Notes: generated by a model not told the origin, from the letters alone. Positions 34,183-61,087 are shown, counted from the first letter of the stretch. The stretch is 64,000 nucleotides of DNA from an uncultured Bdellovibrionales bacterium (GCA_964538685.1 CAZIFD010000001.1:116295-180294); one strand, 5' to 3'. Program-made: numbers and translations.

Positions 34183-35469
34183 ATGACAAAAAAAACAGAA
34201 CAGAAAACAGTTTGTGTTGTCGGATTGGGTTATGTGGGTTTGCCTTTGGCAATGCGATCGCTTGAACGAGGTTATGGTGTAATCGGTTTTGATTTGGACG
34301 AGAAAAAAAACCGACTTATCAATCAAGGAAAAAATCCGATTGAAGAAAAATTTTTGGAAAACTACTTTAAAAATTTTCAGTTGCGAGCTACTAGCGACGA
34401 AAAAGAAATTAAAAAAGCGGATATAGTTTTGATTTGTGTTCCGACTCCGGTGGATGAAAAATTTTTTCCCGATCTTCGTCCGGTCAAGGGAGCGACGGAA
34501 TTGGTGGCAAGAAATCTCAAAAAAGGCGCCTTGGTAGTTTTGGAATCAACAGTGAATCCTGGCGTTTCAGAGGAAGTGGTGGCGCCGATTCTTGAAGTGG
34601 CGGGACACAAAATTGGCGAAGATGTTTTTTTGGCTCACTGTCCGGAAAGAATCAATCCGGGAGACGAGAATTGGAATGTGACCAATATTCCTCGGGTAGT
34701 CGGTTCTTTTGAAAAAAAAGGTCTCAAAATGGCTAAAGATTTTTATGAATCAATTGTGGATGGACCAATCAGACCAATGAAATCCATTCGGGAAGCGGAA
34801 GCGGTCAAGATTGTGGAAAATTCTTTCCGAGATATTAATATTGCTTTTGTGAACGAGCTGGCTAAATCTTTTGACAAGTTGGATATTGATGTTCGGGATG
34901 TGATTTTGGGGGCTGCTACCAAGCCCTTTGCTTTTCTGGCTCACTTCCCTTCTTGTGGAGTGGGCGGTCACTGTATTCCGGTTGACCCTTACTATCTTAT
35001 TGAACGCGCCAAGGAATCGGGATTTGACCATAAATTTCTTAGAATTGCTCGCGAAATCAATAACTCAATGCCAGAATACACCGTGGAAAAACTGCAGGAC
35101 GCTTTGAATGAAATCAAACTCCCGATGAAAGGAACGAAAGTCGGACTGTTGGGAATTTCCTACAAAGCCAATGTGGATGATGTGCGTGAATCTCCCTCTC
35201 TCAAAATTATGGAATTGCTCAAAAAATATGGTTGCGATTTTCAAGTCTTTGACCCGCATATTCTTTCAAAATCAACGGTCAAAAATTTGGAAGCTATTCT
35301 AAAAAAATCCCAAGCTTTGATTTTGGCTACCAATCACGATGAATTTCTTGATATTGACGGACCAATGCTCAAGAAGTTTGGTGTTAAAATTGTAATTGAT
35401 GGGAAGAATTGTTTGGACAAGCAAAAAATCAAAAAATCAGGTATAATATATAAAGGAATCGGAAGATAG
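34183..35469 (+). CDS. UDP-N-acetyl-hexosamine (ManNAc/GlcNAc) 6-dehydrogenase, WecC/WbpA-like
   Basis: Rossmann VVGLGYVGLPLA, catalytic-Cys motif GGHCIPVDPYYL typical of WecC/WbpA rather than Ugd. Confidence 0.75.
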   Translation: MTKKTEQKTVCVVGLGYVGLPLAMRSLERGYGVIGFDLDEKKNRLINQGKNPIEEKFLENYFKNFQLRATSDEKEIKKADIVLICVPTPVDEKFFPDLRPVKGATELVARNLKKGALVVLESTVNPGVSEEVVAPILEVAGHKIGEDVFLAHCPERINPGDENWNVTNIPRVVGSFEKKGLKMAKDFYESIVDGPIRPMKSIREAEAVKIVENSFRDINIAFVNELAKSFDKLDIDVRDVILGAATKPFAFLAHFPSCGVGGHCIPVDPYYLIERAKESGFDHKFLRIAREINNSMPEYTVEKLQDALNEIKLPMKGTKVGLLGISYKANVDDVRESPSLKIMELLKKYGCDFQVFDPHILSKSTVKNLEAILKKSQALILATNHDEFLDIDGPMLKKFGVKIVIDGKNCLDKQKIKKSGIIYKGIGR

Positions 35470-35505: not shown

Positions 35506-35736
35506 ATGTTTAGTTTGATCAAAGGTATTATCTGGTTAGTGGGTTTGGTAGTGGTGGCAATGTTTGTTTTGAATTATTTTGGCTTTGAGGTGAATAAAAA
35601 TTATTTCAATGAAAGCAAAAACGGATGTCAAGAGCGTCTTGAAACTTGCGCCAAGGAGTATATGGAACAAGGAACCAAAAACGCCAAATGTGATTTTGAT
35701 TGCGTTGATCCAAAATTAATAATCAAGAAAAAATAA
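35506..35736 (+). CDS. Small secreted/membrane Cys-rich protein
   Basis: 76 aa, N-terminal TM, four Cys in the C-terminal part. Confidence 0.4.
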   Translation: MFSLIKGIIWLVGLVVVAMFVLNYFGFEVNKNYFNESKNGCQERLETCAKEYMEQGTKNAKCDFDCVDPKLIIKKK

Positions 35737-35740
35737 AGTC

Positions 35741-36691
35741 ATGAAATTAATCGTCAATATCCCAGCTTACAATGAAGAAGAAAAAATTGCGGAAACTATC
35801 AGACGCATTCCCAAGGATTTTTCCGGAATTTCAGAAGTTTTTATTCAAGTTATAGATGATGGTTCCAGCGACAAAACCGTTTCTGAAGCGGAGAAAGGCG
35901 AAGCTGATGCCGTTTATTCCAATGGAATTAATCGGGGAATCGGGGTAACTTTCAGAAATGCGGTTCATCAAGCCTTGGAAAATGGAGCGGATATTATGGT
36001 GAACATTGATGCGGATGGTCAATTTAATCCCAGTGATATTCAAAAAATCATTGATCCGATTCGGAAAAACGAAGCCGATATGGTGAGCGCTGATCGTTTT
36101 GGCGAAAAAAAGGCCAAGGATATGCCGGGAGCCAAATATTATCTTAACCGTTTGGCTGCTTGGATAATAAGCAAGTTTATGAATGTCAGGATTAAGGATT
36201 TAACTTGTGGTTTCAGAGCTTATTCCAGAGAAACCTTAATGCGACTTAATCTTCCCGGAAACTTCACTTATACCCAAGAAACAATCATTGACGCTTTGGG
36301 AAAAAATTTAAAAATCAAATGGGTTCCGGTTGAAGTTACTTATTTTGCGGAAAGAAAATCCCGTGTGGTTAAAAGCATTTGGAACTATGTCAATAACAGT
36401 TTTCGCATCATCCTAAAAGCGGTTCGCGATGTTCGCCCGATGAAATTTTTTGGAATTCCCGGTTTGGGAATGATTTTCGTGTCTATTGTTTTTCTAGTTA
36501 TTTTTTTGATTTTTTATTTTCAGGATTTCAAGATTTCTCCTTACAGAAATTATTTAATTGTTGCCATCAGTCTTTTTTTAATCGGATTGCAATTTATGAT
36601 TTTTGCGTTGATTGCCGATATGATCAAATCCAATCGGAAATTAAACGAAGAGGAAATCTATCTTCTTAAGAAAGAAAAATATAAGAAATAG
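35741..36691 (+). CDS. GT2 polyprenol-phosphate glycosyltransferase (DPM1/GtrB/ArnC-like)
   Basis: NIPAYNEEEKI...VIDDGSSDKT...DADGQ followed by two C-terminal TM helices, the GtrB/ArnC architecture. Confidence 0.75.
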   Translation: MKLIVNIPAYNEEEKIAETIRRIPKDFSGISEVFIQVIDDGSSDKTVSEAEKGEADAVYSNGINRGIGVTFRNAVHQALENGADIMVNIDADGQFNPSDIQKIIDPIRKNEADMVSADRFGEKKAKDMPGAKYYLNRLAAWIISKFMNVRIKDLTCGFRAYSRETLMRLNLPGNFTYTQETIIDALGKNLKIKWVPVEVTYFAERKSRVVKSIWNYVNNSFRIILKAVRDVRPMKFFGIPGLGMIFVSIVFLVIFLIFYFQDFKISPYRNYLIVAISLFLIGLQFMIFALIADMIKSNRKLNEEEIYLLKKEKYKK

Positions 36692-36697: not shown

Positions 36698-37771
36698 ATG
36701 AAAATTCTTTTCATTGCTCATTCTTATCCTCCAATTACTGGCGGAGTGGAAAATCAAAACTTTGAATTATATACTGGGCTTTCAAAAATTGCGAAAGTTA
36801 AATTGTTAGCGAACAAAAAAAGATGGTTGATACCGTTTTTTTTGGGATATGCTTTTATTCGCGGGCTTTTTTCTGCTAGAAATTATGACATTGTTTTTTT
36901 GGGAAGTTGTATTTCGGGGCCGATTGGTTGGGCGATTAAAAAAATGACAAAAACTCCGGTTGTAGCAGTGGCTCATGGTTTGGATTTGACTTGGAAAAAC
37001 AAAATTTATCAAAATTTATGGGTGAAAAAATTCATTCCCTCTCTTGACAAACTGATTGCTGTCGGCAATGAAACTATTGAAGTTGGAGTGGCACGAGGAA
37101 TTCCACGGAAAAAAATGGTTTTTATTCCAAATGGAGTTGATGTGGAAAGATTTATGCGACCGCATTCCCGAGAGGAATTGGAAAAAGTGGTGGGCGAAAA
37201 ATTGGGAGACAAAAAAGTAATTTTAACCACCGGTCGTTTGGCGGTTCACAAAGGAGTGGATTGGTTTTCGGAAAAAGTCGTTTCCTTGCTTCCGGAAAAT
37301 GTGATTTATTTAATTGCCGGAGATGGAGAAAAAAAAGAAGCCGTTCAAAAAATTATCCAAGAAAATAAATTAGAAAATAAGATTAAAATGCTGGGTTATG
37401 TGACTGATGAAGAACGGGAAATTCTTTATAATACAGCCGATATTTATGTGAAACCCAATATCAAAGTTCCGGGGACAATGGAAGGATTCGGGTTGGTTGT
37501 TTTGGAGGCGGCGATTTGCGAACTTCCGGTAGTGGCTTCGGAATTGGAAGGAATAAAAGATGCTATTCAAGATGGCAAAAACGGTTTTTTGGTTAGGCCG
37601 AATGATGCCGATGGTTTTGTCAAAAAAATTGAATACTTGTTGAATGATAATGATTTTCGGAAAGCTTTTGGAAAAAAAGCCAGAGAATACACTAAAGAAA
37701 ATTTTGCTTGGGAAAAAATTTCCCAAAAATATTTAGAGGAAATAACTCAAACTATCAAACAAAATGGTTGA
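36698..37771 (+). CDS. Glycosyltransferase family 4 (GT-B)
   Basis: MKILFIAHSYPPITGGVEN...EGFGLVVLEAAICELPVVAS. Confidence 0.75.
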   Translation: MKILFIAHSYPPITGGVENQNFELYTGLSKIAKVKLLANKKRWLIPFFLGYAFIRGLFSARNYDIVFLGSCISGPIGWAIKKMTKTPVVAVAHGLDLTWKNKIYQNLWVKKFIPSLDKLIAVGNETIEVGVARGIPRKKMVFIPNGVDVERFMRPHSREELEKVVGEKLGDKKVILTTGRLAVHKGVDWFSEKVVSLLPENVIYLIAGDGEKKEAVQKIIQENKLENKIKMLGYVTDEEREILYNTADIYVKPNIKVPGTMEGFGLVVLEAAICELPVVASELEGIKDAIQDGKNGFLVRPNDADGFVKKIEYLLNDNDFRKAFGKKAREYTKENFAWEKISQKYLEEITQTIKQNG

Positions 37772-39701
37772 TACTTTTTTTAATCAGATCCTGTTTCTTT
37801 TGAGCTTGATTTTTATTTTATATTTGCCCGGTCAGGCTTTGCTTTTGGCAGTTTTTGGAAAAAGTCAGACAATGTCTTCTTTGGAAAGATTTGTGGCTTC
37901 TTTCGGTTTGGGTTTGGTGGCGGTGGATTTCATTTGTTTTCTTTATTCCAAATTTAATTGGATAATCGCTCCCCTCTCGGCTTTTTTGGGAATCGGAATT
38001 TTTATTTTAGTTTGCTTGGCTATTTTTAAATTTAGAAAATTTTCTAAAAATAATGAAATTGACAACAAAAATCAAGAACAGCTTTTTTCTTTTTCCAAAA
38101 AGCAATTGCGTTTGATTTTGGTTTTACTTTTGGCGATTTTTTTAGTAAAAACCGCTTATCTTTATGGAACAGTTTTGCCAACAGCGACTGATATGGGGCA
38201 CCATATGTATTGGGCCAAAGAAATGGCAGAAAGCGGAAAATTGCCGACTTATGACGGAATGCCGGATTTTATTATCGGAGAGCATATTATTTTCGGCTTG
38301 GTGGCGATTTTTTCTGGCGCTGATTTTTTCGGGGCCTTTCCGGTTTTACTTCTTTATCTTTTTAATCTTCTGGGAATTTTGGCTATTTTTCTTTTGGTAC
38401 TTCGGATTTTCAGAAATCAAAAAATTGCTATTTTGACTTTGCTTTTTTTAGGCGCGCTTTTTGCTGTTTCTTCCCCTCAAGCTAAATTTGTCAGTGGTGG
38501 CGTGATCGGAAATACTTTGGGAAATTTTCTTTTGCCCTTGGCTTTTTATTTTTATGTCCGAGCCTTTGAATTCCTGAAAAATATAAATTTTCAAGCAAAA
38601 GAAAATAAATCATTAAAAAAAGAAAAAGCTTTTCTGTCTCTGGCTGTTTTTTTGACTTTCGGTCTTTTTTATACACATCATTTGACCGCTTTCATATTTT
38701 TGTTTGTCGTTTTTGGAACCATTTTGATTTATTTTGTTGCTAATTTTCAAGAGGCGACTAGAATTGGCAAAGAACTTTCTCGTTTGGTTTTTTCCCCTTG
38801 GATTTTGGGAACCTTTGCTCTGGGTTTGATTTTTTTCTTTTTTGTTTTTGTTCCCACTTATGTCCAAGGTAGCGCAGTTGAAACGGCCGTTGGCACTCCG
38901 TCCAAATCAACCCGAACGGGCCTTAGTTTGAATAACCTAAAATCAACAGTTGGTAATTTGCGTTTGGGAATGGGTTTTGCGGGAATAATATTTTTGCTTT
39001 TGGCGTATAAAAGAAAAAATATCGGATATGCCTTGATTCTGGGTTGGTCGCTGATGTTGCTTCTTATGTCTACCCGACCCGATTTTCTTTTGATTGATTT
39101 GCCCAGCTCCCGAGTGGGAAATTATTTGTCCTTTCCTTTTGCCATCCTGGCCGCCTTTTCTTTTTGGTTTGTTTTTTCTCTTACTAAAGAAAAAGTTTTT
39201 TTTGCCAATATTTTTTCCGGCATATTGCCTAGATTTTTCTTGCAAGGAAGCTTTTTGGTTTTTTTGTCGGGATTGATTTTTTTCGGAATTTCCGATTCGG
39301 TAGCTTCATTCAAATCACCGGGAAATTACGGCTCACTTTTTGAAACTTTCAGAGCGTCTGAATATTTGGTTGAAGAATCGGAGCTTAGTGATATTATTCT
39401 CAAAGACCATAATTATTTGACCGGTGACACTTGGATGAAACTCTTCTTTATGCGGGGCTATCGCTATCCCCTTTCCCGCAGTTATTTCAAACGCTATGAA
39501 GATGAAACCAATCCGCGCGAAATGTGCACTTTGCAAATGATTTCCTCTCCGGCTTCCGAAGAGGCCAAAAACTGTTTTTCCGAAACCGGAACTAATTTTT
39601 TGGTGGTTAATCACTTGTATGATAGCGCTCAATTTGAAAAAAACAGAGAATTTAATCATATTTATGCCAGTTCCGAAACCAGTATTTATTATAAAAAATA
39701 A
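37764..39701 (+). CDS. Large polytopic membrane protein with C-terminal soluble domain; putative GT-C-fold glycosyltransferase
   Basis: More than 12 TM helices plus about 180 aa C-terminal domain. Occupies the same position after Ugd-like/GT2/GT4 as the recognisable GT-C 52847..54403 in the mirror-image module. No DE motif recognised. Confidence 0.5.
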   Translation: MVDTFFNQILFLLSLIFILYLPGQALLLAVFGKSQTMSSLERFVASFGLGLVAVDFICFLYSKFNWIIAPLSAFLGIGIFILVCLAIFKFRKFSKNNEIDNKNQEQLFSFSKKQLRLILVLLLAIFLVKTAYLYGTVLPTATDMGHHMYWAKEMAESGKLPTYDGMPDFIIGEHIIFGLVAIFSGADFFGAFPVLLLYLFNLLGILAIFLLVLRIFRNQKIAILTLLFLGALFAVSSPQAKFVSGGVIGNTLGNFLLPLAFYFYVRAFEFLKNINFQAKENKSLKKEKAFLSLAVFLTFGLFYTHHLTAFIFLFVVFGTILIYFVANFQEATRIGKELSRLVFSPWILGTFALGLIFFFFVFVPTYVQGSAVETAVGTPSKSTRTGLSLNNLKSTVGNLRLGMGFAGIIFLLLAYKRKNIGYALILGWSLMLLLMSTRPDFLLIDLPSSRVGNYLSFPFAILAAFSFWFVFSLTKEKVFFANIFSGILPRFFLQGSFLVFLSGLIFFGISDSVASFKSPGNYGSLFETFRASEYLVEESELSDIILKDHNYLTGDTWMKLFFMRGYRYPLSRSYFKRYEDETNPREMCTLQMISSPASEEAKNCFSETGTNFLVVNHLYDSAQFEKNREFNHIYASSETSIYYKK

Positions 39702-39706: not shown

Positions 39707-40081
39707 ATGAAATTTGAACTGAAAAAAACCAATCCAATTGTCGTCTCTTTTTTCTTGCTTTTTGCGGTGAGTGTTTTTTTCTTGTTTTGGACTTCCAACC
39801 GACACAGCGATTTGAATTATGAAAAAAATTGGTGGGCGATCTATTTTTCCGAAGCCAAGGGAGACTCTTTGGATTTTTGGATTGAAAACCATTCCAATGA
39901 GAATTATTTTCGTTTTGAAATTTGGCAAGAAAAAAACAAACTTCAAGAAGAAAGTTTGTCAATTGAAAAAGGTGAAAAAAAAGAAATTAAAATAGACGAG
40001 AATGGATTGGAAAAAACCGGGAAAATAAAAATTCAAGTTTTCGCTGGTGAAGATTTGAAATCAATCAGCAAAAATTTTTGA
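39707..40081 (+). CDS. Hypothetical membrane-anchored protein
   Basis: 124 aa with N-terminal TM. Confidence 0.4.
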   Translation: MKFELKKTNPIVVSFFLLFAVSVFFLFWTSNRHSDLNYEKNWWAIYFSEAKGDSLDFWIENHSNENYFRFEIWQEKNKLQEESLSIEKGEKKEIKIDENGLEKTGKIKIQVFAGEDLKSISKNF

Positions 40082-40331: not shown

Positions 40332-41462
40332 ATGTCAAACCAAAAAACTAAAAAAATATTATTTGTCAGTCGGCCTCTTTCCCCTCCTTGGGACGAAGCT
40401 TCCAAAAATCTGGCCTATTTTTTAGCTAAAAATATTTCCGATTTTCAAATTGGAATTATGGTTAAAAAAATATTGCCGGAAGTGGGAAAAAATATTGTTC
40501 AAAATCAAGTTTACACCACTTCCGAAATTTCCGAATTTAATTGGACGGAAAAATTGCGTTCGCTTTTTTTCCAATGGAAGGCACGGGGAAAATTTGATGT
40601 CAATCATTATTTTTTTACTCCGACCAAGCTGAATACTTTTTTGATTAAAAATTTTCTAAAAATCAAAAAAACCAAATCTATTCAAACAGTAGCCACGCTG
40701 CGAGAAGATTTGTGGTCGGATGAAGATTTGAAAAAGTTGCTTTTTGCTGAAAAAATTATCACTTATTCTGATTATTCAAAAAATAAATTAGAAAAGTTGG
40801 GATTTTCGGGAGTGGAAAGAATTTATCCGGGAATTGATTTGGAGATTTATCAAAAAAGACCCAAGGATTCAAAACTGCTTTCCCAATTGGGAATCGGCGC
40901 AGATGATTTTGTGATTACTTATCCCGGAGAATATACGCGTCTTGGAGCAACGGATTTGATAGTTGAAGCATTTCAAGGACTTGAACAAAAAATCAAGAAT
41001 GCCAAATTGATTTTGGCTTGCAGAGTAAAAAACGAAAAAGACCAAAAGAAAAAAGAAGAAATTGCCAAAAAGATCAAGGCCTGGAAAATTTCTGACCGGG
41101 TAATTTTTTTGGATACTTTTTCCGAAATGTCAAAAATCTACAATTTGTCCGAGCTGGTTATTTTTCCGGTTTCCAATATGCGGGGAAAATTTGATGTTCC
41201 GTTGGTTATTCCGGAAGCTCAAGCTTCAAGAAAGCCGGTCATTGTCTCCGATCTTCCTATTTTGAAAGAGTTCGCAAATCCGACTAATTCGGTTATAATT
41301 AAAAAAGACAATCCGAAAGAGCTGGAGCAGGCTATTTTTGATCTTTACGAGCATCCGGAAAAAAGAGAAAGTATCGGTCAAGCCGGAAGGATTTTTGCTG
41401 AAAATAATTTTGATATTAAAAAAGTAGCTCAGGAATACGAAAAAATTTATGCCAAAATATAA
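40332..41462 (+). CDS. GT-B fold glycosyltransferase (GT4-like)
   Basis: Two Rossmann-like halves. The C-terminal region has a GT4-like E...E pattern (VIPEAQASRKPVIVSD). Confidence 0.55.
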   Translation: MSNQKTKKILFVSRPLSPPWDEASKNLAYFLAKNISDFQIGIMVKKILPEVGKNIVQNQVYTTSEISEFNWTEKLRSLFFQWKARGKFDVNHYFFTPTKLNTFLIKNFLKIKKTKSIQTVATLREDLWSDEDLKKLLFAEKIITYSDYSKNKLEKLGFSGVERIYPGIDLEIYQKRPKDSKLLSQLGIGADDFVITYPGEYTRLGATDLIVEAFQGLEQKIKNAKLILACRVKNEKDQKKKEEIAKKIKAWKISDRVIFLDTFSEMSKIYNLSELVIFPVSNMRGKFDVPLVIPEAQASRKPVIVSDLPILKEFANPTNSVIIKKDNPKELEQAIFDLYEHPEKRESIGQAGRIFAENNFDIKKVAQEYEKIYAKI

Positions 41463-42945
41463 TTTTAAAAAAATTTCCTCTCATAAACAGGAGATGAAAA
41501 CGGAAAAAATGAAAGTGCCGGCTGTTCTTCATGTTTCAGATGAATTGCTTCCGGCCGATCGGACATTGGAAGAAATTGAAAATGTAGCCACTTCCGAGTA
41601 TGCTTTTCATCATTTGGTGGCGATGAGTGATGTCCATAGCAAAAAAGGTCGCAAAAATCCGACCGGAACTGTCTTTGCTTCGGAAAAATATCTTTTGCCT
41701 CAAATTAATGATACGGCGCCCAATTGCGGAATGCGTTTTTTGAAAACCAATCTTACTGACAAAGATATTGAAGGAAAAAAATTAGACGAGCTTTTTGAAG
41801 CTTTGGTCAAAGTGATTCCGACTAAAAAATATGTGGGAACTAAAATTCCCTATAATTTGGTTTTGGATATTTGTCGCCAAGGAGTGGCTCCGGTCAAAGA
41901 ATATTTTCAAACCAAAACCAAAAATGAAATAGAAAATTCTTTCAAGCAAGGAAATTTTTTTGAAAAAGAAATAAGCCGAAGAGATATTTTGGATGTTATT
42001 CCCAAACTTTTTCTTTGGATTGGAAAATACCGTTTGGGAATTTTGGGAGCGGCTGGCAATCATTTTTTGGATTTGATGAAAGTAGGAAAAATAAAAGATG
42101 AAAAATTGGCTCAAAAGCTCGGGGTTTTTGAAGGCCAATATATTTTTCTGATGCACACCGGTTCCGGTCTTTTGGGTCAGTATGCTTCTTATATGTACAC
42201 TCCGAAAAAAAAGGAGCACTTGAGTCAGCGAATAGTTTTGGAATTGGGAAAAATGACTTTTGATTCACAACTAAAAAAAGTTTATTCCGGCTTAGCGCCA
42301 CTTATTTCCGAGTTTAAGAACAAAAAAGAATTTTTTGCTTATGACGAAGAAAGCTTGGAGGGACAAATGTTTCTTCGCTCTCACAACGCAGTGGCCAATC
42401 ATGGTTTTGCCAACCGGGTGATTTTAACTGATCATTTGGAAAAAACTTTGACTGCTTTTTTGGGTCGGGATTCGGAATTGGATATGCTTTATGATATGCC
42501 TCATGTTTATGTTAACCAAGAAGAACATTTCGGCAAAAAGGTGTGGGTCCATCGCAATGGTACTGTCCGAGCCAATGGCCCCAAGAGAATGAATGATCAT
42601 CCTCTGTTTTCTCAAACCGGAGAGCCGGTTTTTATCCCGTCTTCCATGAGTACCCCGGCCTATTTGGCAGTTGGAACCGATGAAAATGAGTCCGGTTTCT
42701 TTTCTGCTTCTCATGGAACCGGAAAAAGAAAAGATCCTTTGGCTGACAAAGCTGAGAGCAAAAAAGAGCTTTTGAAAAAAATGGAGAAAAATCAAATAAA
42801 ATTATTTAATGCCAAATCAAGGGGCGTAATTCAGCAAGACAGCGGTTATTATAAAGATGTGGAAGAGGTAATTGCCGGAATTGAAGAAAATAAAATTGCC
42901 AGGGTGGTGGCCAAGATGCAACCGGTGGCGGTGATTATGTATTGA
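41449..42945 (+). CDS. rtcB: RtcB-family RNA 3'-phosphate ligase
   Basis: RtcB metal/GMP motifs in order: AMSDVHSKKG, APNCGM, GAAGNHF, LMHTGSGLLG, AVANHGFANR, HRNGTVRA, SASHGTGKRK. 498 aa. Confidence 0.75.
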   Translation: MPKYNFKKISSHKQEMKTEKMKVPAVLHVSDELLPADRTLEEIENVATSEYAFHHLVAMSDVHSKKGRKNPTGTVFASEKYLLPQINDTAPNCGMRFLKTNLTDKDIEGKKLDELFEALVKVIPTKKYVGTKIPYNLVLDICRQGVAPVKEYFQTKTKNEIENSFKQGNFFEKEISRRDILDVIPKLFLWIGKYRLGILGAAGNHFLDLMKVGKIKDEKLAQKLGVFEGQYIFLMHTGSGLLGQYASYMYTPKKKEHLSQRIVLELGKMTFDSQLKKVYSGLAPLISEFKNKKEFFAYDEESLEGQMFLRSHNAVANHGFANRVILTDHLEKTLTAFLGRDSELDMLYDMPHVYVNQEEHFGKKVWVHRNGTVRANGPKRMNDHPLFSQTGEPVFIPSSMSTPAYLAVGTDENESGFFSASHGTGKRKDPLADKAESKKELLKKMEKNQIKLFNAKSRGVIQQDSGYYKDVEEVIAGIEENKIARVVAKMQPVAVIMY

Positions 42946-42951
42946 TTTATT

Positions 42952-43590
42952 ATGAAAATTATTACAATTTCCGGAGTGGACGGAAGCGGAAAATCCACTC
43001 AAATAAAATTATTGGCGGAATATTTGCAAAAAGAAGGCTTTCAAGTTTTCTATTTTCATGCGGTGGAATTTTCGCTAGCCGGAAAAATAGCCAATCTAAA
43101 AAAATATTGCTGGCTTTGCCAGATTCTGGGTAAATGTAAAATCAAAAAAAATGATTCTGATTTTCACAAGAATGACATTCAAGGGAAAAGTGTAATCAAG
43201 GCGAATTATGTCCAGTTATTTTTACGGAAGATTTTTTTGCGAATTGATATTTTTCGTTTTCAGCAATTACTTAAAAAATTAGAAAAGCAAGGTTGTGATT
43301 ATATTTTGAGCGATCGCTATTTTTTTGATTCGGTGGTTAATATTGAATATTTGAGCCATAAGAATTTTGAATTTGGTTTTCCCAAAAACATAATTCCCGA
43401 AAAATCTTTTTATCTATCGGTTTTGCCTGAAGAAATTATGAAAAGAGAAAGAATTCCCGACCAAGGATTGGAATATTTAATGGAAAAACAAAATATATTT
43501 TCAAAAAAAATTGAAAATTGGAAGCTGTTGAAAATTGACGGTAATCGAAAAAAAGAAGAAGTTTTTGAGGATATTTTGAATAAAATATAA
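42952..43590 (+). CDS. Divergent dTMP-kinase-like P-loop kinase
   Basis: P-loop ITISGVDGSGKSTQ and the DRY motif ILSDRYFFDS of the thymidylate kinase family. No TREPGGT motif. Confidence 0.55.
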   Translation: MKIITISGVDGSGKSTQIKLLAEYLQKEGFQVFYFHAVEFSLAGKIANLKKYCWLCQILGKCKIKKNDSDFHKNDIQGKSVIKANYVQLFLRKIFLRIDIFRFQQLLKKLEKQGCDYILSDRYFFDSVVNIEYLSHKNFEFGFPKNIIPEKSFYLSVLPEEIMKRERIPDQGLEYLMEKQNIFSKKIENWKLLKIDGNRKKEEVFEDILNKI

Positions 43591-43599: not shown

Positions 43600-45081
43600 A
43601 TGTCTCATAAAAATTTGGTAAAATCGGTTTTTTGGGTTACTTTGTCGGAAATAATTTTCAATTTATCCGGTTATGTTATTCATAGTGCGGTAGGGCGAAT
43701 TTTGGGTCCTTCTGATTATGGTCGCTATGGTTTGGTGGTGACGCTCACCACTATGGTAATTATCCTCATTGGTAACGGAATCCCAACGGCGATGAGCAAA
43801 TATTTAAGTGAAGTTTTTGAAAGCCGTCCGGGAATGATTTCAATTATCAAAAAACAGGCTATCCGTCTTCAGTTTATTTTAATTGGCGGAATTACACTTG
43901 TTTTCTTTTTTTTGTCTCCGGTTATTGCTTGGCTTCTCAAAGATTCAACCTTGACTCCCCTTTTTCAAATTTCTACTTTGATTATTCCGGCTTTTGCGGC
44001 GGCTTCTTTTTATTTTTATTATTACACCGGTCTTCATGAATTCAAATTGCAATCAGTCCTGAAAACCGTTCGTTCGGTTTTGAAAGTGGTGGCGATTATC
44101 AGTTTGGCTTACTTTTTTCAACTCAAAGGTTCGGTTGTCGGCTATGTCGTCGCTCCCGGATTGGTTTTTTTAGTTGCTTTTCTTATTGACAAATTTTGGA
44201 TTTCCAAGAAAATAGCGCTTAGAATTCAAAAAAAAGAAACGACTGGAGAATATCTTTTTGACTACAAAAAACTTATCAACTACGCTTGGCCTTTGACTCT
44301 TTTTATGCTTTTTTATGAATTTTTAATCAGCATTGACTTATATTTGGTCAAAGGTATTTTGGAAAATGATTATCTGACAGGGATTTACAACGGAGCGCTC
44401 ACGGTTGGTCGTTTGCCGTATTATCTTTTCTACGCTCTGTCAATAATTCTTTTGCCGGTAATTTCCAAAACCACTTTTGAAAATCGCCATAGCGAAACTC
44501 ACAAAATTGTTTCTCAATCGCTTCGCCTGATGGTAATTCTGCTTTTCCCGGGAGTGATTTTGATGTTAGTTTTCGCTTTGCCGATAATTCAGTTTTTTTA
44601 TGGATCGGAATTTTTAGCTTCTGCTATCCCAATGTCCATTCTTTCTTTGGGAGTGGGGTTCTTGACAATTTTCTATGTGATGAGTTTCGTGGTGAATGGA
44701 GCGGGCAAGGTGAGAGTGCCGATGTGGATCAGTTTCTGGGGTCTTTTGATTAATATTTTGCTTAATTATATTTTCATCAAAAATTGGAGCATTGTCGGCT
44801 CAGCCACGGCTACCTCTATCACTTCTTTTTTGATTATGTTGGTTATGCTTGTTTTCGTCAGAAGAGAATTCGGGGTTTTTCTCAGATTAAAAAGTCTTTC
44901 AAAAATAATTTTAGCTTCTGCGACGATGCTTTGGGTTTCAATTTATCTTCCAAAAACCGAAGACACTTTTATTTTTTATGCTATCTTCCTTTTGGCAATT
45001 TATTTTGCGGTTCTTTTGGTACTTCAGGAAATTAAAAAAGAAGACTGGCAAGTCTTCCGGAAACTGACTGGAAAGAAATAA
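43600..45081 (+). CDS. Wzx/MOP-superfamily polysaccharide (oligosaccharide-lipid) flippase
   Basis: About 14 TM helices. N-terminal pattern (WVTLSEIIFNLSGYVIHSAVGRILGPSDYGRYGLVVTL) is typical of the polysaccharide-biosynthesis flippase family. Confidence 0.75.
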   Translation: MSHKNLVKSVFWVTLSEIIFNLSGYVIHSAVGRILGPSDYGRYGLVVTLTTMVIILIGNGIPTAMSKYLSEVFESRPGMISIIKKQAIRLQFILIGGITLVFFFLSPVIAWLLKDSTLTPLFQISTLIIPAFAAASFYFYYYTGLHEFKLQSVLKTVRSVLKVVAIISLAYFFQLKGSVVGYVVAPGLVFLVAFLIDKFWISKKIALRIQKKETTGEYLFDYKKLINYAWPLTLFMLFYEFLISIDLYLVKGILENDYLTGIYNGALTVGRLPYYLFYALSIILLPVISKTTFENRHSETHKIVSQSLRLMVILLFPGVILMLVFALPIIQFFYGSEFLASAIPMSILSLGVGFLTIFYVMSFVVNGAGKVRVPMWISFWGLLINILLNYIFIKNWSIVGSATATSITSFLIMLVMLVFVRREFGVFLRLKSLSKIILASATMLWVSIYLPKTEDTFIFYAIFLLAIYFAVLLVLQEIKKEDWQVFRKLTGKK

Positions 45082-51793: not shown

Positions 51794-52843
51794 ATGACTA
51801 AAAAAACAAAAATTTTTTTTGCAGTTTCTTTGCTTCTGGGATGTGTGGCGATTGTCGGAGGAAATTATTTTTTGTCGTTTAATCGGAAACAAAAAAAAGA
51901 AAAGGAAATCTTGCTTCAAAAAGAAAAAGATGCTGAATTAAAAATAGGTGTTATAACCGATATTCACGCTTGTGTGGAAGGTTATCCCGATTTAAACCCT
52001 TTTCTTCTCGCTACCAAAGAAGCAAGAACTGATTTTAATGTAAGTTTGGGAGACAATATCAATTTCAGAGTTGGTAATTGTTCCGCTTCTTATCAGGCGG
52101 ATTTATCTTGGGTGACGGAAAAACTCAAATTAGCTGAGCCGTTTCATTGGGTTTTGGGTGACCATGATATTGGGGACGAGAATTCAGTAGTTTTTTGGAA
52201 AGAAAAAACCGGGAAAAACAAAGAGTACTATTCTTTTGATAAAGGAGATTTTCATATTGTCATTCTGGATACGATTTTGGGAGGAGATGAAATGCGATTA
52301 AACTGTTCTTTGGACGAGAAGTGTTTGTTGGCAGAAAATAATTATAAAGAAATCAAAAAAATTTCCAAAAATCCAATTGAAAAAAAGGTTTTTATTGAAA
52401 AAAATAAGTTGGACGAGGTTGGTTTGGAACAGCTTTTGAAAGAAAGATTAGAAGCGTACGAAAAAGAACTGGATGCGGTCAAATGGGTTCGTTCCAGTGG
52501 AAGAAGAGATATCGGCCGAATCGGACAAGCACAACTGGATTGGTTGTTAGCGGATTTGGCGGGATCGCAAAAAAGCAATGTGGTGGTTTTTTCCGATCAT
52601 CCTTTGTTTCATTTCATTTCTCATCGGAAAGAATATAACATTGAAAACGGAGAATCAGTCAGGAAAATTTTGGAATCATCAGGAAAAGAAGTGGTGGCGA
52701 TTTCCGGAGAAGCGCATCTTTGGCACGAGGAAAATTTAAACGGGATTCATTATTTCATTATTGATCGTTTCTCTGGCAATGGAAGTTTTGCTGTTTTTAA
52801 TTGGAACAAAGACGGATTTCGTTTGGAAAAATTTCCCCGTTAA
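51794..52843 (+). CDS. Calcineurin-like metallophosphoesterase, membrane-anchored
   Basis: GVITDIHAC, GDHD, ...GEAH metallophosphatase motifs. N-terminal TM. Start abuts the stop of the upstream GT-C gene. Confidence 0.75.
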   Translation: MTKKTKIFFAVSLLLGCVAIVGGNYFLSFNRKQKKEKEILLQKEKDAELKIGVITDIHACVEGYPDLNPFLLATKEARTDFNVSLGDNINFRVGNCSASYQADLSWVTEKLKLAEPFHWVLGDHDIGDENSVVFWKEKTGKNKEYYSFDKGDFHIVILDTILGGDEMRLNCSLDEKCLLAENNYKEIKKISKNPIEKKVFIEKNKLDEVGLEQLLKERLEAYEKELDAVKWVRSSGRRDIGRIGQAQLDWLLADLAGSQKSNVVVFSDHPLFHFISHRKEYNIENGESVRKILESSGKEVVAISGEAHLWHEENLNGIHYFIIDRFSGNGSFAVFNWNKDGFRLEKFPR

Positions 52844-52846: not shown

Positions 52847-54403
52847 TCAAAAGGCTTGGAAGATTGTGTATTTTCCCAAATCTTTTGAATCTTGGAAAAG
52901 ACTGCTTTCGGGCAGTTTTTTTCTTTTGGATTGAGAAAAGTTTTTCTTGATGATAAAATGACCATCGGGACATTCTTCTTCGGAGCAAGAATGAAGTTTT
53001 ATATTTTCCTTCTTAAGAAGATAGTCAAGAGCGTCTTGATATTCAAAATTAGCCACAAAAACATCTTTGGAATCAGTGTGAGTTGCAATGTATTTTGAAA
53101 TGAGATTTCCGTTTTTCAATTTGAATCCTCCATAGTAACCGCCATATTCATCATCATTTTCCAGTGGTGCGAAATAAACGAAATTAAAAGTTTTTAAATT
53201 GAAAAAAACCAGCGATAAAACAATAAAACCGATAAAAATCATTCCTTTTCGGGAAAATTTTTCTTCAACAAATTTGAAAATTAGCCCCAGAAAAACAAAA
53301 GGAACAGGCAGGATAACCATAAGCATTCGCAATGAAATGGTGTCATCAATGGGAACAAGCGCCAAAAAGAAAAGTCCAAGATACCCCAAAATTATTTGCA
53401 GAAAAAATTTCTTCTGTTTGTCGGATTCTTTTTTCAAATAATAACAAGATAAAATAATTCCTCCCAAAACTACGATCAAACCGAAAGATAAGACTGAAAT
53501 ATTTTTCAAAGTTTTTCCGTCGTCTTTGAGATTGAAAATATCGCATTTGTCGCTGTTTCGGAGAGAAGATAAAACAAAAACATTTCCCTGAACCAAACAT
53601 TCGGCGTTTTTCCAAACCGAAGCCTCACTTCCCTCTTCCGTTTCTATCTTTCCCGAAGCTCCATGAATCAGGGACAAAATATTTTCTCCGCCCGAGCGAA
53701 AGTCATACCAAAAAAGAGGAAAATTAAAAAGCAAAGCGACTAGTCCGGTGAGAATCAAGGCGGATATTTTTTGTTTCCAGTTTCTTTGGAAAAAAAATAG
53801 GAAAAAAATAATGGCTCCGGCTGGCCAAACAACCAGAAGCCAGCCATGCAATTGACTGCCGATTCCAATCAAAGCTCCCAAGGAGGCAATGAGCCACCAA
53901 GGATTTTTATCTTGCTTCAGTTCTTTGATTTTCATAATTAAAAGCAGAAACAAAATCAAGAAAAAAGGAATATCGTTGGGGTTCCAAGCGAAGCGGGAAT
54001 ATTTGATGGCGAAAAATGAAATTGAATAAAGAAAAGAAAGGGTTAGGGCGATTCGTGGTGAAAAAAAATGGCGCATCAAAAGAAAGAAAAGAAGAATGGA
54101 AGCAATAGAAAGAATTGGTGTCGCTAAAGCGATTCCTTGGGGGGAGTTGCCAAAAAGCAAAGCGGAAAAAGCGTGAAGATAATAGAAAATTGGTCCCAAA
54201 TTAAATTTAGTACCTCCGGCTTTGGGTCCGAGAAAAGGCAATTCTTCTCCTGAGGTTATTTTTTCCACTACAATCGCATCACGAACTTGATCGTCGTTGA
54301 ATCTAAGAAGATCGGAAAAGTCATAAAGTCTGAGAAAAGTTCCCAATATCAAAATTAAAAACATCAACGCCAGAATTAAATTTTTTGGTTTTTTCCAATT
54401 CAT
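52847..54403 (-). CDS. GT-C glycosyltransferase, PMT/ArnT-like
   Basis: See paralog 47572..49353. First-loop motif DDQVRDA. Confidence 0.7.
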   Translation of the reverse strand: MNWKKPKNLILALMFLILILGTFLRLYDFSDLLRFNDDQVRDAIVVEKITSGEELPFLGPKAGGTKFNLGPIFYYLHAFSALLFGNSPQGIALATPILSIASILLFFLLMRHFFSPRIALTLSFLYSISFFAIKYSRFAWNPNDIPFFLILFLLLIMKIKELKQDKNPWWLIASLGALIGIGSQLHGWLLVVWPAGAIIFFLFFFQRNWKQKISALILTGLVALLFNFPLFWYDFRSGGENILSLIHGASGKIETEEGSEASVWKNAECLVQGNVFVLSSLRNSDKCDIFNLKDDGKTLKNISVLSFGLIVVLGGIILSCYYLKKESDKQKKFFLQIILGYLGLFFLALVPIDDTISLRMLMVILPVPFVFLGLIFKFVEEKFSRKGMIFIGFIVLSLVFFNLKTFNFVYFAPLENDDEYGGYYGGFKLKNGNLISKYIATHTDSKDVFVANFEYQDALDYLLKKENIKLHSCSEEECPDGHFIIKKNFSQSKRKKLPESSLFQDSKDLGKYTIFQAF

Positions 54404-55362
54404 ATTTTTTTTATTTTTTTATTTTTAAGATAAAGTGGCAACGCAAAAAAACTGATTAACATTTGAACAGTCCGGCTGATAATGGCTACAGTCAGAACTC
54501 CGGCCGGATTGAGTCCGAAAACTCCGAAAAAAGTGATATAAGCCCATTCTTTGAGTCCGATGTTGTTGACACTGATTGGAATGGAAGAAACAATGGAAAT
54601 TAAAAAAACAACCGACAAATAATCCAACAAACCGATTTTTATATCTAAAGCCAAAAAAAGAAGATAATTCAGAAGGGCTACGCCGACAATGGAGAAAAGA
54701 ACGGAATAAGTAATTGACTGGACGACAATTTTTTTGTCCTTGTTGTAGTTTCCCAATTCTCTCAAAAATTCAATGAATTTTTCCGGTGCTATTTTGAAAA
54801 CTATCTTTTTGAGAAACTTTATTTTTCTTATTTGAGGAATAAGAATGTCCGAACCGCAAGACAAAACAAGGATAATGTTAATAACAAAAAGTGTTTCGTC
54901 GGCAATTACTTTTTTCCAGTTGAGCAAACTGAAAAACAACGCCAAAAAAGTGGCGCCAATCAATCCGGTAATGCGATCCATCATTACGGTTGATGCAGCT
55001 TGAGAATATTTTTCATCTTTCTTCCCGATTTCATAAGCTTTGTAAGCGTCTCCGGCGATAAAAGACGGCATAAAATTATTAATGAAAGTGCCGGTGAAAT
55101 ACAGTTTGAAAAAAGTAAAACCGGAAAAATTAAATCCTTTGTATTGAGACAAAATTTTCCATTTGTGGGAAGACAGCCAAAAGCTCAAAAACAATACGCC
55201 GACATAAGCTATCAAATACCAAGGATTGATTTCTTTGACATAAAACAAAACATCCTGCCAGTTGGTGGACCAAACAATCCAAGCTAAAAAAACCGCGCTG
55301 ACGATTATTTTGATGGCAGTTTTTAATTTTTTATTTAGTTTTGGTTTTTTCATAAAATTCAA
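54400..55362 (-). CDS. UPF0104 / LPG-synthase-TM 'flippase-like' membrane protein
   Basis: 8 TM helices, N-terminal Lys-rich segment. Family resemblance to PF03706 is from memory. Overlaps both neighbours, so likely translationally coupled. Confidence 0.55.
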   Translation of the reverse strand: MNFMKKPKLNKKLKTAIKIIVSAVFLAWIVWSTNWQDVLFYVKEINPWYLIAYVGVLFLSFWLSSHKWKILSQYKGFNFSGFTFFKLYFTGTFINNFMPSFIAGDAYKAYEIGKKDEKYSQAASTVMMDRITGLIGATFLALFFSLLNWKKVIADETLFVINIILVLSCGSDILIPQIRKIKFLKKIVFKIAPEKFIEFLRELGNYNKDKKIVVQSITYSVLFSIVGVALLNYLLFLALDIKIGLLDYLSVVFLISIVSSIPISVNNIGLKEWAYITFFGVFGLNPAGVLTVAIISRTVQMLISFFALPLYLKNKKIKKI

Positions 55363-58888: not shown

Positions 58889-59452
58889 ATGCAAGAAAAA
58901 TTTGAGGCGGTTTGCGAACTCTTGAAAAAATTAAAGGAAGACCAATCTTTTTTGGAAGCTTCCCAAAAAGCCTCTGAAAAAATCGCCAAATCTTTGGAAA
59001 ATGGAGGCAAGCTTTTGGTTTGCGGAAATGGTGGCAGTGCGACGGAGGCTTCTCATATGGTCGGAGAATTTGTCGGTCGTTTCGGTTTTGATCGTCCGGC
59101 ATTGCCGGCCATCTCTCTTTTTGACTTGGCTTCAACGACAGCCATTGGCAATGATTATGGGTATGATGATATTTTTTCCCGTTTTGTAGATGGTCTGGGA
59201 AAAGAAAATGATGTTTTGTTTTCATTGAGCACTAGTGGCAATTCAAAAAATTGCTTAAAAGCAATGGAGACGGCTCAAAAAAAAGGAATGACGAACATTG
59301 CTCTTTTGGGAAGAGATGGAGGCGCAATGAAGGAATTGGCGGATGTTTCAATTGTGGTTTCTTCCGACAAAACTCCGCTCATTCAAGAAGTGCATTTGAT
59401 GGTGATTCATAATTTGTGCGAAAAAACGGAAAATTATTTTTTTAAGAAATAA
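58889..59452 (+). CDS. gmhA: Phosphoheptose isomerase (SIS domain)
   Basis: KLLVCGNGGSATEASHMVGEF...FSLSTSGNS matches GmhA. Confidence 0.8.
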   Translation: MQEKFEAVCELLKKLKEDQSFLEASQKASEKIAKSLENGGKLLVCGNGGSATEASHMVGEFVGRFGFDRPALPAISLFDLASTTAIGNDYGYDDIFSRFVDGLGKENDVLFSLSTSGNSKNCLKAMETAQKKGMTNIALLGRDGGAMKELADVSIVVSSDKTPLIQEVHLMVIHNLCEKTENYFFKK

Positions 59453-59464
59453 AACAGCTAATTT

Positions 59465-61077: not shown

Positions 61078-61087
61078 CAAAAAAAAT

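Follow-up and report, generated by a model that had tools for sequence, protein, structure and literature searches.

RtcB enzymes are regarded purely as nucleic-acid end joiners that take part in the splicing of tRNA and of XBP1/HAC1 and in the repair of RNA or ribosomes, and we know of no member of the family with a non-nucleic-acid substrate. Bacterial Pnkp/Hen1 RNA repair combines a kinase, a metallophosphoesterase and a ligase; the Pnkp kinase supplies 5'-phosphate ends to an ATP-dependent ligase, while RtcB chemistry requires a 5'-OH. In glycan decoration, modules of a kinase, a nucleotidyl transferase and a transferase are represented by LicA-LicC-LicD (phosphocholine) and by salvage through a sugar-1-kinase and an NDP-sugar pyrophosphorylase.

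Canonical RtcB proteins (P. horikoshii, E. coli, human RTCB; PF01139) form a covalent His-NMP intermediate and have archease, RtcA, RtcR or PrfH as partners. In the P. horikoshii enzyme (Pho) the nucleophile is His404 and the M1 ligands are Cys98, His234 and His329 (PMC9745838), and the 5'-OH strand is contacted by Arg238 (Arg189 in E. coli), Arg190, Gln194 and His242 (PMC8051266). Exchange of Arg189 of EcoRtcB against alanine slowed sealing 200-fold and formation of RNAppG only 3-fold (PMC8051266). RtcB proteins also perform capping reactions, namely DNA3'pp5'G capping by E. coli RtcB and 5'-phosphate capping by Myxococcus xanthus RtcB3, as reported in the review PMC10630183 and by the reference list of PMC8051266. 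Here GMP is placed onto a phosphomonoester and the reaction stops, which is the half-reaction proposed below; for RtcB3 this likeness refers to its description in these sources. The capped substrates are nucleic-acid ends, and no glycan context is known for them.

The RtcB-like protein of the present study, encoded in a stretch of 64,000 nucleotides (the window), has the fold, the His nucleophile, the Cys/His two-metal ligands and the equivalents of Asn202 and Tyr451 in common with canonical RtcB, and presumably forms the covalent His-NMP intermediate too. Its partners, however, are a GT-B glycosyltransferase, a kinase and a flippase.

Gene content of the glycopolymer cluster

The window holds a 34-kb envelope-glycopolymer cluster of the Wzx/Wzy type, with Wzx at 43600, Wzy_C at 31001 and LCP at 28546. 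Six GT4, four GT2, two Ugd and five PMT-like GT-C genes were counted in the 64-kb window, and no initiating phosphoglycosyl transferase was seen there. A conserved block on the + strand is headed by a Ugd-like gene of the UDP-glucose/GDP-mannose dehydrogenase family (34183..35469; Pfam UDPG_MGDP_dh N, central and C domains), a homologue of which lies 5' of the GT2 gene in 36 of 37 judged loci. It is followed by the gene for a conserved small membrane protein of 76 aa with a hydrophobic N-terminal segment (35506..35736), whose slot is filled by a 75-77-aa gene in loci L001, L003, L005, L086 and L087, and by a GT2 glycosyltransferase gene (35741..36691; Pfam Glycos_transf_2; syntenic in 52/54 loci). 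The GT2 protein resembles polyprenyl-phosphate sugar transferases, and its C-terminal region appears hydrophobic on reading of the sequence. Next come GT4a, a canonical GT4 glycosyltransferase (36698..37771; Pfam Glycos_transf_1 and Glyco_transf_4; syntenic), a large polytopic membrane protein (37764..39701; Pfam DUF6541 and DUF1616; syntenic in 57/59 loci) and sm124, a membrane-anchored small protein of 124 aa (39707..40081) without a Pfam family match, the position of which is conserved in 59/61 loci.

The genes of main interest are tightly packed on the same strand: the GT-B glycosyltransferase GT4b (40332..41462; Pfam Glycos_transf_1, residues 185-353 only), the RtcB-family ORF (41449..42945), a Tmk-derived P-loop kinase (42952..43590) and a Wzx/MOP-family flippase (43600..45081; Pfam Polysacc_synt, Polysacc_synt_3, MurJ and MatE). 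ORFs and junctions are as originally predicted. The ATG of the RtcB-like gene overlaps the end of GT4b (stop codon 41460-41462) by 14 nt, a 6-nt gap separates its stop from the kinase ATG, and a 9-nt gap with AGGA lies between the kinase stop and the Wzx ATG. A gene for an LPG_synthase_TM-family membrane protein (54400..55362; Pfam PF03706) is located on the - strand; this family adjoins or neighbours the RtcB-like gene in the outgroup loci L088, L089, L090, L092 and L093. The usual company of RtcB, of which archease and rtcA had been singled out in the original prediction, did not turn up: archease, RtcA, RtcR and PrfH were found neither by Pfam in the 64-kb window nor among the called genes of related loci. 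The only structured RNA in the window at Rfam gathering thresholds is a tRNA-Gln (2994-3066), and the sm124-GT4b spacer differs in length between genomes; a conserved structured RNA as substrate at the locus was rejected on these grounds. An anti-phage defence system was likewise dismissed, as PADLOC matched neither the RtcB-like protein nor GT4b nor sm124, and its hits to the kinase amounted to P-loop noise. Promoter and terminator scans were noisy in the AT-rich DNA of the window, and no operon boundaries were drawn from them.

Active sites of the RtcB-like protein and the kinase

The RtcB-like protein matches PF01139 over its full length (236.5 bits; residues 43-496 on profile positions 2-424 of 426), and a Foldseek search with its structure model, in which the C-terminal quarter is of low confidence (pLDDT below 50 at residues 374-487), returned RtcB structures only (TM 0.70-0.78). 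Residues D61, H63, C93, N204, H205, H236, H352, H422 and Y468 are invariant in the main clade (n = 121 sequences). These include the nucleophile and the M1 ligands, kept as H422, C93, H236 and H352 in 121/121 sequences; the Cys/His ligands of M1 and M2 and the equivalent of the 5'-OH-anchoring Asn202 are all invariant. The original prediction of a full set of RtcB signature motifs nevertheless proved too generous. In the clade an invariant NDTAPNC stands in place of the canonical G-x-D-I-x-C with its D-x-x-C metal motif; the M2 aspartate (Pho D95) corresponds to A90, with D88, a candidate substitute, two residues upstream, and the aligned position is Ala in 119/121 sequences.

With residue roles taken from PMC9745838 and PMC8051266, the contacts to the 5'-OH strand are replaced throughout the clade (R238 to G240, H242 to Q244, and R190 to I191 and Gln194 to Arg195, the latter two in a less certain part of the alignment that includes an indel near Pho residues 190-194). 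Contacts to guanine and phosphate are replaced as well: N330 (gamma-phosphate) by V353, E206 (N1/N2) by D208 and Lys480 (O6) by M497, the register of Lys480 being deduced from the KG ends of canonical sequences since Pho residues 479-481 lie outside the alignment output. A further change is S385 to A404. Canonical representatives (n = 46), by comparison, retain Arg238 in 42/46, Asn330 in 44/46, Lys480 in 40/46, His242 in 35/46 and Arg190 in 33/46 cases. Judged from the alignment, the ORF encodes a non-canonical RtcB-family protein that is specific to its lineage and from which the RNA-strand and guanine contacts are gone; it is predicted to act as a nucleotidyl transferase or ligase via His422-NMP, its acceptor site being remodelled. 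As the arginine that positions the 5'-OH strand is absent, the enzyme probably does not seal RNA. The natural glycine at the Arg238 position, taken together with the EcoRtcB Arg189 mutant, predicts activation of a phosphate without RNA sealing, and the loss of RNA-holding residues suggests that the family was recruited outside RNA repair. Note that K193, R195 and a clade-specific insert after His63 (SKKGRKNP) are basic; an RNA site could thus have been rebuilt.

The kinase has a Tmk fold with P-loop, DRY/DRH motif and LID, and a remodelled phosphoryl-acceptor site. Profile searches, which were proposed for both proteins in the original prediction, bore out RtcB over the full length and Tmk in part only: the match to PF02223 is limited to residues 6-36, and the score against TIGR00041 is 40.4 bits at a cut-off of 83.25. 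In Tmk structures, TMP is bound by the TREP arginine, by a stacking Phe and an Arg in the next helix, and by base-recognition residues after DRY. In agreement with the predicted absence of TREP, the acceptor-binding segment of the kinase (about residues 37-85) is remodelled; where Tmks have TREP, it reads FHA..F....K and carries a variable insert, and DRY is followed by FFDSVVNIEY versus YAYSGVAYSSG of Tmks (PfTmk alignment). With its sub-cut-off score, its replaced acceptor segment and its position before Wzx in a glycan locus, the kinase thus differs from thymidylate kinase. In the main clade the insert is rich in His and Cys, but the outgroup kinases lack this cluster and a metal site is therefore not a feature of the family. 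Probing with E. coli and T. maritima Tmk sequences matched the locus kinases only, and no other Tmk-like ORF was found in the regions covered by this search, namely the 64-kb window, which is part of a contig of at least 188 kb, and 1.6 Mb of locus flanks.

Gene neighbourhoods in related and unrelated bacteria

The arrangement GT4b-RtcB-kinase-Wzx is present in 80 species-level genomes of Patescibacteria (Moranbacteria-type), the RtcB-like proteins of which share 51-72% identity. Within the block, conservation is highest for RtcB, with 51-75% identity compared to 35-60% for its neighbours. The main clade stems nearly entirely from one lineage, so part of this synteny is inherited. Outgroups with rearranged surroundings show a linkage of the RtcB-like gene as well, at identities of 31-44%. 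The complete order is kept in an outgroup family with 37-44% identity (L086, L087, L089). In L088 a cassette of overlapping GT4b, RtcB and kinase genes lies in a foreign context, in L090 the three genes are dispersed within 6 kb on both strands, and in L092 and L093 the RtcB-like gene (31-32% identity) and a GT4b orthologue belong to one operon while the kinase is absent. The GT4b orthologues in rearranged contexts show 41% (L088), 27% (L090; E 2.5e-38) and 31% identity (L092; E 1e-47). In L091 the active site of the RtcB-like protein is dead (H404Y, H203P, N202E), and neither GT4b nor the kinase occupies its slot; the full-length dead homologue still precedes Wzx.

Absence of the pair from orthologous loci of relatives, which the original prediction had named as evidence against itself, is not what we observed: the same slot is filled in 80 species genomes, and in outgroups, and an accidental insertion or assembly artefact was discarded. 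The RtcB-like gene and the kinase are a fixed part of the envelope glycopolymer cluster across this ultra-small bacterial lineage. They do not form its tightest unit. The most constant neighbour of RtcB is GT4b, which is directly 5' of it in 72/74 loci, and that of the kinase is Wzx, which follows it in 62/64 loci, whereas the RtcB-kinase junction is broken in 14/76 genomes. These breaks and the absence of the kinase in L092 and L093 indicate that the kinase is not obligatory beside the ligase.

In one metagenome scan, a glycosyltransferase or Wzx homologue on the same strand within 2.5 kb was detected at none of 56 canonical RtcB loci but at 9 of 19 non-canonical ones (Fisher p = 7e-7), and an adjacent kinase at none of 56 and at least 10 of 21, respectively (Fisher p = 3e-7), related contigs being counted as independent in both tests. 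The canonical loci of the scan had RtcA and archease as neighbours. In two further non-canonical RtcB-like families the gene directly 5' always encodes an HprK-type P-loop kinase, and GT4, GT28, GT2, Wzx and PMT_2 genes surround the pair in unrelated bacteria; an APH-type kinase is additionally present in L103 and L104. The pairing of an RtcB-like protein and a kinase in a polysaccharide operon, of which the original prediction knew no example, is thus not unique to the present locus. Remote relationship of the constant 5' partners of these families to GT4b was considered and abandoned (hhalign probability below 1%); these proteins are HprK-type kinases. Across the non-canonical RtcB-like families, glycosyltransferases and flippases recur as neighbours, and so do kinases of several non-homologous types (Tmk-like, HprK-like, APH); the pairing with unrelated kinases points to a kinase step as part of the chemistry.

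Proposed role and alternative explanations

We propose, with a probability of about one half, that the RtcB-like enzyme serves the synthesis of a cell-envelope glycopolymer together with GT4b and the Tmk-derived kinase, and not RNA repair. The original prediction had considered either RNA repair hitch-hiking in the operon or repurposing to glycan chemistry; gene linkage and the lost RNA contacts favour the latter. The results above show membership of family and fold, the exchanged residues and a gene linkage conserved in several lineages; substrate, nucleotide and order of the steps we infer as follows. The kinase would phosphorylate a hydroxyl group of a cytoplasmic precursor, candidates for which are sugars, polyols and other small or lipid-linked acceptors. 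The RtcB-like enzyme would load an NMP from an NTP, possibly other than GTP, onto His422 by means of the two-metal site and move it to the phosphomonoester to yield an NDP-activated intermediate with a pyrophosphate link, which would correspond to RNA(3')pp(5')G. This intermediate could then be used as donor by GT4b or, alternatively, be attacked by a non-RNA hydroxyl to give a phosphodiester. A lipid carrier would serve for assembly of the product, and Wzx for its export. In setting and three-step logic (kinase, NMP-transferring enzyme, transferase, with a flippase nearby) such a pathway would resemble modules of the LicA-LicC-LicD type, a functional analogy and not homology; unlike in these modules, the nucleotidyl step would be performed by an RtcB-fold enzyme via a covalent His-NMP. 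Pnkp/Hen1 systems likewise combine a P-loop kinase with a ligase, and Metallophos genes recur in RtcB-like loci, but the window locus lacks a Hen1 methyltransferase and its neighbours are glycan genes.

Tentatively, non-canonical RtcB-family proteins may represent an unrecognised phosphate-activating class in glycoconjugate biosynthesis of several unrelated lineages, a comparison that lies apart from the survey of Burroughs and Aravind (2016), reportedly the main published one of RtcB neighbourhoods. Each would have a dedicated kinase (Tmk-derived, HprK-type or APH-type) and would turn a phosphorylated hydroxyl of a sugar, polyol, lipid or peptide into an NMP-capped pyrophosphate for use by a GT-B enzyme or for phosphodiester formation. 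The chemistry of RNA ligation would then have been redeployed for the construction of cell envelopes. Hardly anything is known about the surface chemistry of Patescibacteria, and their episymbiotic lifestyle probably rests on it. If correct, the proposed role would be the first non-RNA function of the RtcB family, a new route to activated phospho-intermediates or phosphodiester links in envelope polymers and an entry point to envelope biosynthesis in Patescibacteria; it would also call for caution with the automatic labels 'tRNA-splicing ligase RtcB' and 'thymidylate kinase' for these genes.

Unrelated genes are often packed together in the compact genomes of Patescibacteria, and the protein might accordingly be a true RNA 3'-phosphate/5'-OH ligase (RNA repair, tRNA or rRNA splicing) at the end of a well-expressed operon, with a gene order inherited in a slowly rearranging genome. 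Full-length family and fold membership, the intact nucleophile and metal ligands, a top conservation within the block as for a housekeeping enzyme, and the adjacent basic residues that might stand in for the lost arginines would fit. We nevertheless consider this unlikely: the linkage to GT4b and the kinase outlasts three different rearrangements down to 31% identity, the dead gene of L091 coincides with the loss of both, and every mapped side-chain contact to the 5'-OH strand is lost along with the guanine-O6 lysine. In addition, canonical RtcBs of the same scan never have glycan or kinase neighbours, and archease and RtcA were not found by Pfam in the window. The functional tie could also be confined to GT4b and the RtcB-like protein, with the Tmk-like protein heading a separate kinase-Wzx unit as a housekeeping kinase for dTMP or another NMP or as a recycler of NMP released by the ligase. 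This is distinctly unlikely in view of the replaced TMP-binding segment, the altered thymine-recognition region and the score under the NCBIfam dTMP-kinase cut-off; moreover, the kinase accompanies the RtcB-like gene in the rearranged loci L088 and L090, is gone along with GT4b in L091, and has unrelated counterparts beside other non-canonical families.

Both proteins derive from nucleotide-handling families, and with the invariant Asn202 equivalent and the same glycan linkage as invoked for the glycopolymer role, the enzyme might handle a nucleotide or RNA end within envelope synthesis, for example by linking the 3'-phosphate of a nucleotide or RNA to a hydroxyl group on a glycan or lipid, with the kinase as source of the nucleotide phosphate. 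Such a reaction is improbable, being without bacterial precedent and at odds with the lost 5'-OH strand contacts and with the Rfam search, which found no conserved RNA gene or structure at the locus. A non-catalytic scaffold or regulator of a glycosyltransferase complex, as the retention of a full-length but dead homologue before Wzx in L091 might suggest, is highly improbable, because none of the 121 main-clade sequences departs from the nucleophilic His, from the metal ligands (one Cys, three His) or from the Asn202 equivalent, which indicates selection for catalysis.

Genes of the window locus and their conservation

The window derives from an AT-rich genome (~37% GC) of the Moranbacteria type within the Patescibacteria. 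Housekeeping genes fill its first part (1-27 kb), and the region from 27.6 to 61 kb is a single envelope-glycopolymer supercluster that comprises an LCP ligase, a Wzy_C protein, six GT4 and four GT2 genes, two Ugd genes, five PMT-like GT-C genes, a metallophosphoesterase, an LPG_synthase_TM protein and GmhA/PfkB/GmhB-like heptose genes. An ORF check reproduced the predicted positions of the GT-B glycosyltransferase GT4b (40332-41462), the RtcB-family ORF (41449-42945, 498 aa), the P-loop kinase (42952-43590, 212 aa) and the Wzx/MOP flippase (43600-45081). The reading frames of GT4b and RtcB share 14 nt, from the RtcB ATG to the GT4b stop codon; gaps of 6 nt and of 9 nt, the latter including AGGA, separate RtcB from the kinase and the kinase from Wzx. 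Neither archease, RtcA, RtcR nor a second Tmk-like gene was present within the 64-kb window, and a tRNA-Gln was the sole Rfam match on it. The deposited protein (P0121, 483 aa) begins 15 codons 3' of the ATG at 41449 (41449-41493). The N-terminal extension is kept across homologues, with S10, K13, K14 and T18 near-invariant, and the start at 41449 that overlaps GT4b is therefore probably real.

Close relatives of the RtcB-like protein and of the kinase number in the hundreds and are encoded on shared contigs. A scan of the clade with one genome per species yielded 131 genomes with a clade RtcB, from which 80 loci (RtcB identity 51-72%) were retained and scored against the proteins of the window. 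The block of GT2, GT4a (36698-37771), DUF6541 protein (37764-39701), the 124-aa membrane-anchored protein sm124 (39707-40081), GT4b, RtcB, kinase and Wzx was almost universal among the scored loci. An accidental insertion of the pair, considered in the original prediction, is contradicted by the near-universal GT4b-RtcB-kinase-Wzx block in the 80 retained loci. The GT4b-RtcB junction was intact in 72 of 74 loci and the kinase-Wzx junction in 62 of 64. The junction between RtcB and kinase was broken in 14/76, either by unrelated insertions of 1.6-6.6 kb or by a rearrangement in which RtcB stayed by GT4b. The pair thus spans the weakest junction of the block, although RtcB and kinase are tightly packed in the window.

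The short spacer 3' of RtcB is an insertion hot spot in the relatives. It harbours a gene of the 23S_rRNA_IVP family in two loci (L003:11556-11936 and L004), small ORFs in another (L005:11549-11749) and, in L045:11490-17680, ~6 kb with several small-ORF families repeated 3-6 times; a further insertion is found in L056:9330-15890. Many genome records with this Moranbacteria-type locus (L008-L012, L015, L026 and ~20 more) bear the title 'uncultured Bdellovibrionales bacterium' and probably represent mislabelled MAGs.

Diagnostic residues of the RtcB-like protein and the kinase

Membership in the RtcB family was confirmed by an end-to-end match to PF01139 (236.5 bits) and by full-length alignment with the P. 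horikoshii protein. The AlphaFold model (pLDDT 72.9, pTM 0.82) retrieved RtcB structures only (TM 0.70-0.78). Residues with roles assigned in structural studies (PMC9745838; PMC8051266) were tabulated in 121 clade members and 105 full-length representatives. In P. horikoshii numbering, Cys98, His203, His234, His329 and His404 (H422 in the window) as well as Asn202, Tyr451, Asp65 and His67 are invariant in the clade. At the position of the M2 metal ligand Asp95 the clade has Ala, and the motif NDTAPNC places an invariant Asp two positions further upstream. The four side-chain contacts to the 5'-OH strand that were mapped are changed: Arg238 to Gly, Arg190 to Ile or Val, His242 to Gln and Gln194 to Arg. 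The γ-phosphate contact Asn330 is Val, the guanine N1/N2 contact Glu206 is Asp, Ser385 is Ala, and the guanine O6 contact Lys480 of the C-terminal KG is Met in a C-terminus that ends in LMY. Canonical representatives keep Arg238 (42/46), Asn330 (44/46), Arg408 (45/46) and Lys480 (40/46). The protein had been predicted to carry the full set of RtcB signature motifs; this does not hold, as the equivalents of Asp95, Arg238, Arg190, His242, Asn330 and Lys480 are changed, and judged by its sequence the protein is non-canonical.

Exchange of the residue equivalent to Arg238 in the E. coli enzyme (R189A) lowers sealing 200-fold and RNAppG formation only 3-fold (PMC8051266). Together with this effect, the natural Gly at the Arg238 position predicts an enzyme that retains phosphate activation and joins RNA 5'-OH ends poorly. 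Loss of the specificity for guanine is predicted as well. The alignment contains an indel around residues 190-194; nearby Lys193 and Arg195, together with the clade-specific basic insert SKKGRKNP, could provide an alternative binding site.

The kinase retains the P-loop and the DRY motif and lacks the TMP-binding TREP segment, as had been proposed. Alignment of the main clade and the outgroups shows as invariant the Tmk-type P-loop GxDGSGKST, FHA, K45, R92, D99, R102-F103, the motif SDRYF.D..N and the LID sequence PE.IM.R.R.P.QG. The kinase thus seems to have kept its catalytic apparatus and to have a remodelled acceptor site. Residues 36-62 of the main-clade kinases (YFHA...YCxxC...GKC) contain His36, Cys53, Cys56 and Cys62, invariant or nearly so; these map to a loop that is modelled with low confidence, and they might bind a metal. 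This insert is limited to the main clade and was rejected as a hallmark of the family, because outgroup kinases lack the cysteines.

Rearranged loci and other non-canonical families

An exhaustive search of representatives revealed a gradient of relatives beyond the clade. A small outgroup family with 37-44% identity, also from Patescibacteria, has the same locus in L086, L087 and L089, and in L088 GT4b, RtcB and kinase are kept as an overlapping cassette despite wholly different surroundings. L090 (38% identity) carries the RtcB-like gene and homologues of the kinase and GT4b within 6 kb on both strands, alongside B12-radical-SAM and LPG_synthase_TM genes. At 31-32% identity (L092 and L093), the RtcB-like gene shares an operon with a GT4b orthologue, radical-SAM, LPG_synthase_TM, a polysaccharide deacetylase and GT2, and the kinase is absent from this operon. 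The gene order (L092:958-13761 and L093) is GT4b orthologue, methyltransferase, B12-radical-SAM, LPG_synthase_TM, RtcB-like, a 522-aa polytopic membrane protein, polysaccharide deacetylase, a 621-aa protein, a 74-aa protein resembling acyl carrier proteins (DSL motif), a 374-aa protein and GT2. In L091, GT4b and kinase are both gone from their usual slots, and the DUF6541, small ORF, Wzx and PMT genes stay. Its full-length RtcB-like ORF (L091:800-2305, 501 aa), directly 5' of Wzx, has a destroyed active site (H404Y, H203P, N202E, D65S); it is possibly a pseudo-enzyme or a module in decay.

For an internal control, the nearest non-canonical family served as seed of a metagenome scan, and the 80 loci obtained were classed by diagnostic residues. 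A same-strand GT or Wzx homologue lay within 2.5 kb of 0/56 canonical versus 9/19 non-canonical genes (Fisher p 7e-7), and a kinase of the Tmk-like or HprK-like type lay at most 600 nt from 0/56 versus 10/21 (Fisher p 3e-7; the contigs are not phylogenetically independent and both p-values are indicative only). If overlapping ORFs are counted, the latter value becomes 16/21. As a positive control, the same scan recovered RtcA cyclase and archease among the neighbours of canonical RtcB. The only kinase-profile match in a canonical locus (L127:13359-14105, E 9e-13), ~5.5 kb downstream of RtcB, is probably an ordinary Tmk.

Two more non-canonical families (L098-L105, L115 and L116, e.g. L103:6464-8727; and L106-L109, L111 and L119, e.g. 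L108:8850-11407) come from bacteria with 43-72% GC, and in each family a constant gene lies immediately upstream. The two upstream partners share homology (hhalign probability 100%, E 3e-66) and a Walker A motif, and 7/7 tested members matched the HprK-related models TIGR04352/TIGR04355; on this profile evidence they are assigned to a single family of HprK/PEPCK-type P-loop kinases. Neighbours of both families include GT4, GT28, GT2, Wzx, PMT_2 and UbiA genes. The L103/L104 operon encodes an APH-family kinase, GT4, the HprK-like kinase, RtcB-like and a GT28-type GT-B, that of L108 a radical-SAM protein, two GT2, an epimerase, the HprK-like kinase, RtcB-like, a Wzx/MurJ-type flippase, PMT_2 and UbiA. 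The pairing with HprK-like and Tmk-like kinases in glycan-type operons indicates that the combination of kinase, RtcB-like protein and GT or flippase is recurrent, with non-homologous kinases. In the high-GC bacterium of L103:1569-13806, and in L104, two kinases of different families thus stand beside one RtcB-like gene; an ABC exporter precedes the APH/choline-kinase-family kinase, and a Kelch-repeat protein and a TonB-type outer-membrane barrel follow the GT-B.

Proposed reaction and alternatives

RtcB catalysis proceeds in three steps: formation of a His-NMP adduct, transfer of the NMP to a phosphomonoester and attack by a hydroxyl group. The most economical reading of the locus is that this chemistry is applied to a non-RNA precursor. 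The dedicated kinase would place a phosphomonoester on this precursor and the RtcB-like enzyme would add an NMP cap to it; the capped intermediate would be consumed by the adjacent GT-B enzyme or resolved to a phosphodiester, and Wzx would export the product towards the envelope polymer. According to passages in published accounts, the RtcB family is able to halt at a capped intermediate, as with DNA3'pp5'G and with capping by an RtcB paralogue (PMC10630183; PMC8051266). We put at about 0.5 the probability that the RtcB-like protein serves envelope glycan synthesis and acts on a non-RNA substrate; any specific substrate, whichever is chosen, is more doubtful than that. If true, the proposed chemistry would be a new enzymatic route. 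In full-text searches no paper connected RtcB with glycan operons, with glycosyltransferases or with the biology of Patescibacteria/CPR; an earlier mention is possible.

A true RNA ligase that holds its position through inherited synteny would be consistent with the invariant Cys98 and His404 and with the near-universal block, and is unlikely: linkage that withstands rearrangement, together with the simultaneous loss of all partners, argues for a shared function rather than for inherited gene order alone. The weak RtcB-kinase junction and the kinase-free operons would fit a coupling of GT4b and RtcB only, with a housekeeping or recycling NMP kinase next to them; given the cassette of L088 and the kinase neighbours of other non-canonical families, we regard this as quite unlikely. 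An envelope step that is nucleotide- or RNA-linked would agree with the RtcB fold and a Tmk-derived kinase, less so with the altered 5'-OH strand contacts, and appears improbable. That the RtcB-like protein is a non-catalytic scaffold seems far-fetched; the destroyed active site of L091 resembles such a case, and the clade-wide invariance of the residues lost there speaks against it.

A WecG/TagA-family glycosyltransferase (12293-12985) and the LCP (LytR-CpsA-Psr) ligase (28546-29739) of the window suggest a wall-attached, teichoic-acid-like polymer; an initiating phosphoglycosyl transferase was not recognised within the window. The glycan cluster is bordered by four consecutive genes (58889-61573) that look like a nucleotide-heptose pathway: those for a SIS/GmhA-like isomerase, a PfkB-family kinase and a HAD/GmhB-like phosphatase, and a 161-aa ORF. 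A 639-aa protein (61582-63501) unites a C1 peptidase of the papain family with a lectin-like domain and DUF5648. Genes for calcineurin-like metallophosphoesterases are found repeatedly in or beside the loci (window 51794-52843; L001:16188-17207 and 18898-19725; L088:7749-8816, divergent from GT4b; L089:6759-9120, two genes after Wzx), and phosphoester intermediates of the same pathway may be their substrates.
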